Source of the DNA: Escherichia coli
GTDB lineage: Bacteria > Pseudomonadota > Gammaproteobacteria > Enterobacterales > Enterobacteriaceae
NCBI RefSeq assembly: GCF_003334315.1
Contig: NZ_QOWR01000032.1
Direction: 5' to 3' (one strand)
DNA length: 50,212 nt
In this document: positions 29,962 to 35,588 of the stretch, one piece after another
Layout of the letters: every line of letters begins with the position of its first letter
How positions within the stretch are numbered: the first letter of the stretch is position 1
Position numbers and translations under genes: made by a program
The notes under the pieces: generated by a model
What the model was told of the DNA's origin: nothing
Seen by the model: only the letters and a program-made list of their open reading frames with translations
Databases searched by the model: none

Positions 29962-30291
29962 ATGACTATGAAAAAACTGTTAATTATCATTTTGCCGGTC
30001 CTTCTCTCCGGCTGTAGCGCCTTTAATCAGCTGGTTGAGCGCATGCAAACCGATACGCTGGAATACCAGTGTGATGAAAAACCGTTGACGGTCAAACTGA
30101 ATAATCCGCGCCAGGAGGTCAGTTTTGTTTACGATAATCAACTACTGCATCTCAAACAGGGCATTTCAGCCTCTGGCGCGCGTTACACTGACGGAATCTA
30201 TGTTTTCTGGTCGAAAGGCGATGAAGCGACTGTCTATAAACGCGACCGCATCGTCTTGAATAACTGTCAGTTACAAAATCCACAGCGTTGA
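29962..30291 (+). CDS. mliC: MliC, membrane-bound lysozyme inhibitor of C-type lysozyme (109 aa)
   Basis: ORF 109 aa [21 protein letters not shown] (lipoprotein signal)... Confidence 0.9.
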
Positions 30292-30349
30292 GATTTTTCC
30301 AGGGGCGGCGCACAATAGCGTCACCCACTGACAATCCGTAAAGAAAACC

Positions 30350-31006
30350 ATGTCTGATAACGACGAATTGCAGCAAATCGCGCATCTGCGCCGTGAATAC
30401 ACCAAAGGCGGGTTACGCCGCCGCGATCTTCCCGCCGATCCATTAACCCTTTTTGAACGTTGGCTCTCTCAGGCTTGTGAAGCCAAACTGGCGGACCCTA
30501 CCGCGATGGTGGTCGCTACCGTGGATGAACATGGTCAGCCTTATCAGCGCATCGTTTTACTCAAACATTACGACGAAAAAGGCATGGTGTTTTACACCAA
30601 CCTCGGCAGCCGTAAAGCACATCAAATCGAAAATAATCCGCGCGTTAGCCTGCTGTTCCCGTGGCATACCCTTGAGCGCCAGGTGATGGTGATCGGTAAA
30701 GCAGAACGACTTTCGACTCTCGAAGTGATGAAATATTTTCATAGCCGCCCGCGTGATAGCCAGATTGGTGCATGGGTTTCGAAGCAGTCCAGTCGCATTT
30801 CTGCCCGCGGTATCCTTGAAAGTAAATTCCTGGAGCTGAAGCAGAAGTTTCAACAGGGCGAAGTGCCATTGCCGAGCTTTTGGGGCGGTTTTCGCGTCAG
30901 CCTTGAACAGATTGAGTTCTGGCAGGGTGGTGAGCATCGCCTGCATGACCGCTTTTTGTACCAGCGTGAAAATGATGCGTGGAAGATTGATCGTCTTGCA
31001 CCCTGA
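30350..31006 (+). CDS. pdxH: Pyridoxine/pyridoxamine 5'-phosphate oxidase (218 aa)
   Basis: ORF 218 aa [39 protein letters not shown]... Confidence 0.93.
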
Positions 31007-31134
31007 AAAGATGCAAAAATCTTGCTTTAATCGCTGGTACTCCTGATTCTGGCACTTTATTCTATGTCTCTTTCGCATCTGGCGAAAAGTCGTGTACCGG
31101 CAAAGGTGCAGTCGTTATATACATGGAGATTTTG

Positions 31135-32409
31135 ATGGCAAGCAGTAACTTGATTAAACAATTGCAAGAGCGGGGGCTGGTAGCCCAGGTGACGGACGAG
31201 GAAGCGTTAGCAGAGCGACTGGCGCAAGGCCCGATCGCGCTCTATTGCGGCTTCGATCCTACCGCTGACAGCTTGCATTTGGGGCATCTTGTTCCATTGT
31301 TATGCCTGAAACGCTTCCAGCAGGCGGGCCACAAGCCGGTTGCGCTGGTAGGCGGCGCGACGGGTCTGATTGGCGACCCGAGCTTCAAAGCTGCCGAGCG
31401 TAAGCTGAACACCGAAGAAACTGTTCAGGAGTGGGTGGACAAAATCCGTAAGCAGGTTGCCCCGTTCCTCGATTTCGACTGTGGAGAAAACTCTGCTATC
31501 GCGGCGAACAACTATGACTGGTTCGGCAATATGAATGTGCTGACCTTCCTGCGCGATATTGGCAAACACTTCTCCGTTAACCAGATGATCAACAAAGAAG
31601 CGGTTAAGCAGCGTCTCAACCGTGAAGATCAGGGGATTTCGTTCACTGAGTTTTCCTACAACCTGTTGCAGGGTTATGACTTCGCCTGTCTGAACAAACA
31701 GTACGGTGTGGTGCTGCAAATTGGTGGTTCTGACCAGTGGGGTAACATCACTTCTGGTATCGACCTGACCCGTCGTCTGCATCAGAATCAGGTGTTTGGC
31801 CTGACCGTTCCGCTGATCACTAAAGCAGATGGCACCAAATTTGGTAAAACTGAAGGCGGCGCAGTCTGGTTGGATCCGAAGAAAACCAGCCCGTACAAAT
31901 TCTACCAGTTCTGGATCAACACTGCGGATGCCGACGTTTACCGCTTCCTGAAGTTCTTCACCTTTATGAGCATTGAAGAGATCAACGCCCTGGAAGAAGA
32001 AGATAAAAACAGCGGTAAAGCACCGCGCGCCCAGTATGTACTGGCGGAGCAGGTGACTCGTCTGGTTCACGGTGAAGAAGGTTTACAGGCGGCAAAACGT
32101 ATTACCGAATGCCTGTTCAGCGGTTCTTTGAGTGCGCTGAGTGAAGCGGACTTCGAACAGCTGGCGCAGGACGGCGTACCGATGGTTGAGATGGAAAAGG
32201 GCGCAGACCTGATGCAGGCACTGGTCGATTCTGAACTGCAACCTTCCCGTGGTCAGGCACGTAAAACTATCGCCTCCAATGCCATCACCATTAACGGTGA
32301 AAAACAGTCCGATCCTGAATACTTCTTTAAAGAAGAAGATCGTCTGTTTGGTCGTTTTACCTTACTGCGTCGCGGTAAAAAGAATTACTGTCTGATTTGC
32401 TGGAAATAA
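31135..32409 (+). CDS. tyrS: Tyrosyl-tRNA synthetase (424 aa)
   Basis: Start chosen at [23 protein letters not shown]; contains HLGH and KFGKT class-I aaRS motifs. Confidence 0.93.
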
Positions 32410-32424
32410 TGCATTAAGTGGAAA

Positions 32425-32457
32425 GGGGGAGTGAGAAATCACTCCCCCTGGTTTTTA
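32425..32457 (+). terminator. Rho-independent terminator-like hairpin between tyrS and pdxY
   Basis: GGGGGAGTGA-GAAA-TCACTCCCCC perfect 10-bp stem followed by TGGTTTTTA, 15 bp after the tyrS stop and about 10 bp before the pdxY start. Confidence 0.55.
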
Positions 32458-32467
32458 TACAGGGAAC

Positions 32468-33331
32468 ATGATGAAAAATATTCTCGCTATCCAGTCTCAC
32501 GTTGTTTATGGTCATGCGGGTAACAGTGCGGCAGAGTTTCCGATGCGCCGCCTGGGCGCGAACGTCTGGCCGCTGAACACCGTTCAATTTTCTAATCACA
32601 CCCAATACGGCAAATGGACTGGCTGCGTGATGCCGCCCAGCCATTTAACCGAAATTGTGCAAGGCATTGCCGCCATTGATAAATTACACACCTGTGATGC
32701 CGTATTAAGTGGCTATCTGGGATCGGCGGAGCAGGGTGAACATATCCTCGGTATCGTCCGTCAGGTGAAAGCCGCGAATCCGCAGGCGAAATATTTTTGC
32801 GATCCGGTAATGGGTCATCCGGAAAAAGGCTGTATCGTTGCACCGGGTGTCGCAGAGTTTCATGTGCGGCACGGTTTGCCTGCCAGCGATATCATTGCGC
32901 CAAATCTGGTTGAGCTGGAAATACTCTGTGAGCATGCGGTAAATAACGTCGAAGAAGCGGTTCTGGCAGCGCGCGAACTCATTGCGCAAGGGCCACAAAT
33001 TGTGTTGGTTAAACACCTGGCGCGAGCTGGCTACAGCCGTGACCGTTTTGAAATGCTGCTGGTCACCGCCGATGAAGCCTGGCATATCAGCCGTCCGCTG
33101 GTGGATTTTGGTATGCGCCAGCCGGTAGGTGTTGGTGATGTGACGAGCGGTTTACTGCTGGTGAAACTGCTTCAGGGGGCAACGCTGCAGGAGGCGCTGG
33201 AACATGTGACCGCTGCAGTCTACGAAATCATGGTGACCACCAAAGCAATGCAGGAATATGAGCTGCAAGTGGTGGCTGCTCAGGATCGTATTGCCAAACC
33301 AGAACATTACTTCAGCGCAACAAAGCTCTGA
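32468..33331 (+). CDS. pdxY: Pyridoxal kinase PdxY (287 aa)
   Basis: ORF 287 aa [34 protein letters not shown]... Confidence 0.92.
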
Positions 33332-33343
33332 AATATCTCATTT

Positions 33344-33368
33344 CGGCCCACAACGACCTGTGGGCCGA
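33344..33368. terminator. Hairpin between convergent pdxY and gstA
   Basis: CGGCCCACA-ACGACC-TGTGGGCCG 9-bp stem; flanking T/A runs are weak. Confidence 0.35.
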
Positions 33369-33374
33369 TGGCTA

Positions 33375-33980
33375 TTACTTTAAGCCTTCCGCTGACAGCG
33401 CGTCTTGTACTTCCGGACGTTCAGCCATACGTTGCATAAATGCTGCAATGTGCTCTAACCCTTCCAGATTCAGTTTCACCGCGTATGCCCAGCGCAGAAC
33501 CGTAAACAGATAGGCATCAGCAATTGTAAATCTTTGCCCGCAGATCCAGTGCTCATCCTTCAGTGCCTCGTTCACATATTGCAGCTTCTTCTCCAGCTGC
33601 GCGCGAACTGTCGTTTTGTACTCTTCCGGTGTATCAGGGCGAAACAGAGGTGTGAAACCTTTATGCAGCTCGGTGGCGATGTAATTCAGCCATTCGATGG
33701 TTTTATAGCGGGAAATACTGTTTACCGGTGCCAGCAACTGGCGGTCGGGGACGCTGTCGGCAAGATACTGCATAATCGCTACGCCTTCCGTCAGCAAAGT
33801 ACCGTCATCCAGCAGCAATGCAGGCACCTGCCCCTTAGGGTTAACGGCAAAGTAATCGTCACCGTTTTCGAGACGTTTTTTCATTAAATCCACACTGACG
33901 AGGGTAAAATCCTTTCCGCTCTCACGCAGGGTGATATGGGAAGCGAGAGAGCAGGCACCCGGTTTGTAGAACAATTTCAT
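33375..33980 (-). CDS. gstA: Glutathione S-transferase GstA (201 aa)
   Basis: ORF 201 aa [60 protein letters not shown]... Confidence 0.93.
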
Positions 33981-34030
33981 CGGTAACTCCTTTTGTCTGT
34001 GGTTTAAAGTATGGTAGTGCGTTGCTGAAC

Positions 34031-34063
34031 AAAAAAAAAGCCGCTAACGAAAAGTTAGCGGCT
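34031..34063 (-). terminator. Rho-independent terminator of dtpA
   Basis: AGCCGCTAAC-GAAAA-GTTAGCGGCT 10-bp stem; on the minus strand it is followed by a 9-nt T-run (plus-strand AAAAAAAAA at 34031..34039). Confidence 0.65.
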
Positions 34064-34085
34064 TGTAAAAGAGTTTCCCTGAATT

Positions 34086-35588
34086 TTACGCTACGGCTGC
34101 TTTCGCCGCTTTGTCTGCAGCGTCATCCTGCGTCATGCGGTGCAGTTTCGGCGCGGTCAGCAGCATCAGTACTGCAATAACGGCAGTAGCGACACCAATC
34201 TGCAAGAATACGCGACCATAGACTTCCAGTGACATCAGCGGATCGGTAACGTTATCCGGCACAGCCATCATACCCGCAACATAACCACCAATCAGGTTTG
34301 CACCGGCAGTGGTCAGGAACCAGCTACCCATAATGAAGCCCATCAGACGCTGCGGAACGAGTTGAGCAACCATTGCCAGACCCAGACCAGAGATCATCAG
34401 TTCCCCGATGCTCTGCAGGCCATAGCTTGCGACCAGCCAGCTTACAGACACGATACCAGCGTCAGACGCGAATTTCGCACCCAGCGGCAGAATCAGGAAC
34501 GCACCAGAACACATCACCATGCCGATTGCAAACTTGGTTGGCATCGGCAGGGTATCGCCCATCTTGTTATAGATAGCGGCCAGAATCGGACTACCGATGA
34601 TGATCCAGAACGGGTTCAGTGCCTGATACTGCTCAGGTTCTACGGCCAGACCCAGAATGGAGTGCTCAACGTTACGAATCGCAAAGAAGTTCAGTGACGT
34701 TGGCATCTGGCTGTACAGCACGAAGAAGATAATGGCTTCGAGCATCAGGATGAAGGCAACGATCATTTTACGACGCGCAGCACCTTTCATCGCGAAGGCT
34801 TCTTTACCGAAGATAACCACGATACCGAAGGCAACAACGCCCAGCGCCATACGCGCAACTTCCTGATTGTGCAGCAGCCAGGTGGCGATAGCGATCAGTG
34901 CCACAACACCAATAATGGTCAGCAGCAGGTTACGGTAGTTGATAGGCTCGAAGTCTGGTTTTGAACCGTACTGTTTAACCCAGCGTTGGCAGAAGGCGAA
35001 GTTAACGATAGTGATCAGCAGGCCTACAACGCTCAACGCAAACGCAACACTCCAGCCGTATTTCGCGGCCAGCCACGGCGTAGCAATCATAGAGAAGAAA
35101 GAGCCGATGTTGACGGACATGTAGTACATGGTGAATGCACCGTCCAGACGCGGGTCGTTTTTCTCATAGCATGTAGAAAGCAGAGAAGACGGGTTAGCTT
35201 TAAACAGGCCGTTACCGACCGCAATAGCCGCCATACCCATATAAACGATACCGGCGTCGTGACCAGACCAGGCAACCAGAGCATAACCAATCGCCAGCAC
35301 AATAGCGCCGAGCATAATTACGCGTTTAGTACCCAGTACCTTGTCACCTAACCAGCCGCCGATAGCGACCAGACCATAAACCAGGGCACTAAAGGAAGAG
35401 AAAAGGGTGATTGAATCCGCTTCAGACATACCCAGTTGTTTAACCAGGTAAACAGCCATAATTCCTTGTAGGCCGTAATAACCAAAACGTTCCCATAACT
35501 CAATCGAGAAGATGAGATAGAACGCCTTCGGTTGTTTGAAAGCGTTCAAACTGACGCTTTCAGTTGGTTTTTGGTTTGCAGTGGACAC
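34086..35588 (-). CDS. dtpA: DtpA (TppB) proton-dependent di/tripeptide permease, POT family (500 aa)
   Basis: ORF 500 aa [49 protein letters not shown] (POT signature). Confidence 0.93.

Follow-up and report, generated by a model that had tools for sequence, protein, structure and literature searches.

The gap between tyrS and pdxY in Escherichia coli very probably holds a canonical intrinsic (Rho-independent) terminator, a leaky one that acts inside the pdxH-tyrS-pdxY operon. This reading draws on the structure of a GC-rich hairpin in the gap, on the conservation of that hairpin with compensatory changes across Enterobacteriaceae, and on an RNA 3′ end mapped in vivo to the U-run behind it.

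Gene context and hairpin structure

The DNA around the site is E. coli chromosome carrying pdxH–tyrS–pdxY–gstA, and it forms part of the window, by which we mean the whole 50,212-nt stretch analysed. A 2.3-kb query around the site found a match in all 5426 complete E. coli genomes, many of them 100% identical, and across tyrS-pdxY the window and E. coli genomes match at 100% identity. RefSeq places anmK, mliC, pdxH, tyrS and pdxY on the plus strand and gstA and dtpA on the minus strand, which agrees with the identities that the preliminary description of this DNA had given to pdxH, tyrS and pdxY. According to the RefSeq annotation of identical E. coli genomes mapped to the window, together with the list of open reading frames, tyrS (tyrosine--tRNA ligase) lies at 31135–32409 (+) and closes with a TAA stop codon at 32407–32409, and the distal gene pdxY (pyridoxal kinase) lies at 32468–33331 (+). 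From that TAA and the ATG at 32468, the gap is exactly 58 nt (32410–32467), as had been stated.

We detected a weak Shine-Dalgarno-like AGGGA (32461–32465) ahead of two candidate pdxY starts in the sequence, ATG 32468 and ATG 32471, the three together spanning 32461–32473 (+). The annotation of the gene uses the first of the two, which are adjacent (MMKNIL...). In other genera the gene opens at the second position (MKNIL...), and in E. whittamii an ACG stands in for the first ATG. The AGGGA motif sits 5 nt upstream of the second ATG, and the true pdxY start may be 32471, giving a protein of 286 aa.

On the sense strand of the gap, 14 nt of spacer (32410–32423, +) separate the tyrS stop codon from the foot of the hairpin AGGGGGAGTGA-GAAA-TCACTCCCCCT (32424–32449), which is followed by GGTTTTTATA. 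The 5′ arm AGGGGGAGTGA occupies 32424–32434 (+) and the 3′ arm TCACTCCCCCT occupies 32439–32449 (+), both supported by sequence, fold and compensatory changes across Enterobacteriaceae, and they enclose a GAAA tetraloop of the GNRA type (32435–32438, +; sequence and fold). The stem consists of 11 perfect Watson-Crick pairs, seven of which are G-C. Folded as RNA, the gap reaches -24.3 kcal/mol (z = -4.45), a stability matched by none of 200 shuffles, and the hairpin by itself accounts for -21.6 kcal/mol. The U-rich tail GGTTTTTATA (32450–32459, +) contains a T5 run at 32452–32456; its opening stretch, GGUUUUUAUA, has five U within the first 8 nt and so satisfies the scan criterion, and the GG that adjoins the stem makes the U-tract imperfect, interrupting it beside the stem.

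Strict hairpin-plus-T-run sites (a perfect stem of at least 9 bp with at least 5 G/C, a loop of 3–8 and at least 5 T in 8) numbered 10 on both strands of the 50-kb window, whereas 30 dinucleotide-preserving shuffles averaged 0.13, an enrichment of about 75-fold, and the hairpin-plus-T-run is confirmed not to be a product of chance. The preliminary description had reported a strong terminator-like hairpin with a perfect 10-bp GC-rich stem followed by a T-run. The hairpin is real, although its stem has 11 pairs, the closing A-T pair having been omitted; the T-run likewise exists, but it comprises only five T and starts after GG rather than directly at the stem. The word "strong" has to be qualified, since a U-tract interrupted by GG beside the stem fits a leaky terminator.

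Two other roles for the hairpin were considered and rejected. As a bidirectional terminator it would have to work on the minus strand as well, where the hairpin is equally stable, yet the tail TTCCACTTAA is not U-rich and there is no convergent gene. As an RNase III site, the stem is too short, judged on general knowledge. Further along the window, a strong terminator after dtpA (34064–34038, 11-bp stem, T7 run) is overlapped by a sub-threshold Rfam match to sroB (34031–34115, minus strand; 31.8 bits, gathering score 44, E = 0.23); the terminator hairpin itself most likely gave rise to this match by chance.

Conservation of the terminator

A PdxY search yielded 80 usable species-representative Enterobacteriaceae loci, sampled from Escherichia, Citrobacter, Salmonella, Enterobacter, Klebsiella, Raoultella, Kosakonia, Kluyvera, Leclercia, Lelliottia, Cedecea, Buttiauxella and other genera. 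Wherever upstream DNA was present at these 80 loci, tyrS lay directly upstream of pdxY, usually 55–90 nt off, and every tyrS–pdxY gap among them contained a GC-rich hairpin and then a T-run. The finder for perfect stems mis-scored three loci, two with one internal mismatch each (L004, L026) and one with a bulge (L081), and at five more (L074–L078) it absorbed the T-run into an A/T extension of the stem; hairpin plus T-run were present at all of these loci on direct reading of the sequence.

The sequence of the hairpin varied considerably, with 33 distinct versions in 81 gaps, exemplified by GGGGCGTGG-GAAA-CCACGCCCC in Citrobacter, Enterobacter and Klebsiella and by AAAAGCACGGC-TTAT-GCCGTGCTTTT in Cedecea-like genomes; the loop was GAAA in 72 of the 81. 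When 71 distinct gaps were aligned with MAFFT and scored on the E. coli pairing scheme, 90.6% of cells were paired and both sides had changed in six of the 11 pairs. The covariation score of this alignment was 0.330, compared with 0.179 ± 0.010 for column shuffles (0/500 reached 0.330) and at most 0.149 for slid partners. The 33 distinct hairpins and the compensatory changes in six of 11 pairs indicate that structure, not sequence, is conserved, and a conserved structure joined to a T-run points to selection on the fold as well as on the U-tail, the hallmark of an intrinsic terminator.

Most other genera have 6–7 T (U) in the first 8 nt after the stem (UUAUUUUUU), so that the Escherichia U-tract, GGUUUUU or GAUUUUU, is poorer beside the stem than theirs. 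The spacer upstream of the hairpin is poorly conserved in sequence; its length, from the tyrS stop codon to the hairpin, is 11–15 nt in about 73 of the 81 gaps and 6–8 nt in three species, and the distance from hairpin to pdxY ATG ranges from 21 to 46 nt (81 gaps).

Within the species, a 141-nt region containing the site occurs in every one of the 5426 complete E. coli genomes, and in 5208 of them the match is at least 99% identical. The region is single-copy, with a median of one place per genome; two places occurred in one genome, where the match is split by an insertion of IS200C. In that genome (NZ_CM136177.1, E. coli PRO_A-1028-6W-A_ESBL), IS200C (tnpA, about 710 bp) has inserted exactly after the terminator's GGTTTTT and before ATACAGGG, corresponding to window position 32456/32457 and to 1857–2569 of the extracted locus (L082). 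In this strain the full insertion sequence lies between the terminator and pdxY, which should alter pdxY expression. A different insertion was observed in Enterobacter sp. BIGb0383, where about 150 nt of added sequence (L056, 2296–2450) extends the gap from about 60 to 208 nt. The added sequence is a long imperfect palindrome that separates the tyrS stop codon from the conserved terminator; with it the gap has a minimum free energy of -98.9 kcal/mol, and it is probably a miniature inverted-repeat element.

Transcript ends in vivo and probable read-through into pdxY

The Term-seq data of Adams et al. 2021 (eLife 10:e62438, PMC7815308, Supplementary file 1) list an RNA 3′ end at MG1655 1715904 on the minus strand, with an average of 41,205 reads in the LB OD600 0.4 sheet and the label "primary" for tyrS, a class defined there as ends that share the strand of an annotated gene and lie no more than 50 bp downstream of it. 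The sequence listed for this end, GAAATAATGCATTAAGTGGAAAGGGGGAGTGAGAAATCACTCCCCCTGGTTTTTATACAGG, is identical to the window. We took the register of the 61-nt sequence column (50 nt upstream, the end itself and 10 nt downstream) from the sgrS row, where the final U of the SgrS terminator is base 51, and cross-checked the conversion of MG1655 coordinates to the window on a pdxH-internal end. This register places the tyrS end at the second U of the U5 run, position 32453 (+), 4 nt past the stem. The end exceeded the threshold only in the LB OD 0.4 sheet and not in LB OD 2.0 or M63 (Adams et al. 2021). Mapping of 3′ ends had been proposed earlier as a check on the hairpin, and the abundance of this end within the U-run (Term-seq, PMC7815308) establishes that transcripts do end there.

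How these ends arise is a separate matter, because the Term-seq signal comprises, inseparably, true termination and exonuclease trimming back to a stable hairpin. At intrinsic terminators the 3′ end usually lies 7–9 nt from the stem, and an end only 4 nt past it suggests some trimming here. We also noted a hairpin, GGCGGGTTACGCCGCC (window 30407–30426), within the 5′ part of pdxH. The same data set records an ORF-internal 3′ end 4 nt past it (MG1655 1717931 = window 30426, +76 in pdxH), seen in two growth conditions, not Rho-dependent and with an intrinsic-terminator score of 1.9 (Adams et al. 2021); processing and a pause are candidate origins of that end.

We suggest that, as RNA polymerase moves past tyrS, the 11-bp GC-rich hairpin with its GAAA loop would form and the enzyme would pause on the U-run. 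Most polymerases would then let go of the transcript at the U-run, leaving a hairpin-capped tyrS mRNA, and the minority that pass the terminator would be the source of pdxY mRNA. The net effect would be a fixed step down in expression, from the abundant and essential TyrS to the low-level salvage kinase PdxY. That a minority reads through is expected from the short, interrupted U-tract (GGUUUUUAUA), as a U-tract that is poor beside the stem predicts incomplete termination. Yang, Tsui, Man and Winkler (1998) are reported to have put a number on this, with about 92% of tyrS transcripts ending at a putative Rho-factor-independent attenuator before pdxY (about 8% read-through). In the literature searched we found no direct measurement of read-through or of a pdxY transcription start, and neither gene is named in the SMRT-Cappable-seq supplements (tyrS, pdxY). 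The attenuated read-through into pdxY that the preliminary description anticipated is supported by the mapped end in the U-run, by the anatomy of the site and by its conservation.

Alternative explanations

The source of pdxY mRNA had been left as either its own promoter or leakage through the terminator, and leakage is now favoured. Were pdxY transcribed mainly from a promoter of its own, the hairpin would merely end the tyrS unit; a poor -10-like TATACA (32456–32461) does lie 6 nt before the ATG, and a leaderless mRNA is possible in principle. This candidate, however, lacks the invariant final T, has a poor -35 and falls in a segment that differs in other genera. Moreover, pdxY has the same orientation as tyrS and its ATG comes 11 nt past the T-run, leaving no room downstream of the terminator for a σ70 promoter and leader, and a consensus scan of the plus strand from 30316 to 35291, the gap included, returned no promoter-like site. 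The lack of room and of any such site argue that pdxY is fed by read-through, and Yang, Tsui, Man and Winkler are also reported to have observed complete co-transcription of pdxY with tyrS; we therefore regard a predominant pdxY promoter as very unlikely, and the view that pdxY is reached only via read-through is supported. Equally slight is the chance that the hairpin is a processing or stability element only, at which polymerase does not stop and which protects tyrS mRNA from 3′-to-5′ exonucleases that trim a longer RNA back to it. The mapped end just 4 nt past the stem would suit such an element, and many Term-seq ends arise by processing (Adams et al. 2021, PMC7815308). A pure stability hairpin would not need a T-run, though, and one follows the hairpin in every species examined; position and orientation fit a terminator, and Yang and colleagues reportedly read the site as one of termination. 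Exonuclease trimming could nonetheless shape the exact position of the 3′ end. The chance is smallest for Rho-dependent termination or a repeated extragenic (REP/BIME-like) element in place of an intrinsic terminator, which nothing specific favours: Rho would have far too little untranslated RNA to load on, and the Rho-termination region list of Adams et al. 2021 includes neither tyrS, pdxY nor any coordinate in their range, which is negative evidence only. A repeat element is rejected on the single-copy state of the sequence across 5426 E. coli genomes.

The alternative to which we assign slightly more weight than to the others, while still considering it improbable, is that the leaky terminator is a regulated attenuator, with read-through into pdxY varying in response to PLP or B6 vitamers, tyrosine or charged tRNA-Tyr, growth rate, or the ribosome at the tyrS stop codon. 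The element does have an aminoacyl-tRNA synthetase gene on one side and a vitamin-B6 gene on the other, its Term-seq end is above threshold in one of three growth conditions, and in most species the hairpin starts 11–15 nt past the stop codon, about where the leading edge of a terminating ribosome would lie. Modulation of read-through by translation termination at the tyrS stop codon, in particular, would make PdxY output track tyrS translation or growth state instead of a fixed fraction, and we think this very doubtful, as the spacer is only 6–8 nt in three species and a short spacer may simply have had few indels. The regulated reading in general is also at odds with a gap of only 58 nt and with a spacer that is not conserved in sequence. 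In a 186-nt fold that included the 3′ coding region of tyrS, the hairpin appeared in both the minimum-free-energy and centroid structures and no competing antiterminator was present, and an Rfam scan of 30000–35000 placed no family at the site, its two chance-level hits lying elsewhere. The finding of no alternative antiterminator structure argues against a regulated attenuator and for a constitutive partial terminator that is not a sensor.

Significance and comparison with known systems

The tyrS-pdxY terminator is already known: we take the hairpin to be the tyrS-pdxY 'Rho-factor-independent attenuator' of E. coli K-12 (Yang, Tsui, Man and Winkler 1998), the same element at the same locus, differing in nothing. 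What is added here is its conservation and covariation across species and its link to a 3′ end from genome-wide Term-seq. The element would account for one operon yielding much TyrS and little PdxY. It bears as well on the engineering of tyrS, since edits to tyrS alter pdxY expression, and thus on work in which tyrS is deleted or replaced, such as kill-switch and vaccine-vector studies that cite the pdxH-tyrS-pdxY operon; in passages of later papers, the operon is credited to Yang et al. 1998 (J Bacteriol 180:1814-1821, PMID 9537380). Beyond correct annotation the result has little importance and raises no new question.

Compared with canonical intrinsic terminators of E. coli, the element shares a GC-rich stem, here of 11 bp, a stable GNRA tetraloop and a U-rich tail. 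Like them, it lies on the sense strand just past a stop codon and has an RNA 3′ end within its U-run. It differs from them in that its U-tract has only five U, set off from the stem by GG, for which a lower efficiency is expected, and in that the next gene begins 11 nt past the T-run, so that it acts within an operon and not at its end. Internal partial terminators of E. coli operons include the rplL-rpoB attenuator and the rpsU-dnaG terminator T1. Each of these is likewise a leaky intrinsic terminator between co-transcribed genes that lowers distal expression; their sequences are unrelated to that of the tyrS-pdxY element and they belong to different operons, making the likeness one of function and not of homology. 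With regulated attenuators, such as trp-type leader peptides, T-box elements and riboswitches, the element has in common a hairpin that limits transcription of a gene from upstream. Unlike them, it has no leader peptide, antiterminator, or ligand- or tRNA-binding domain, and it is not a member of that class.
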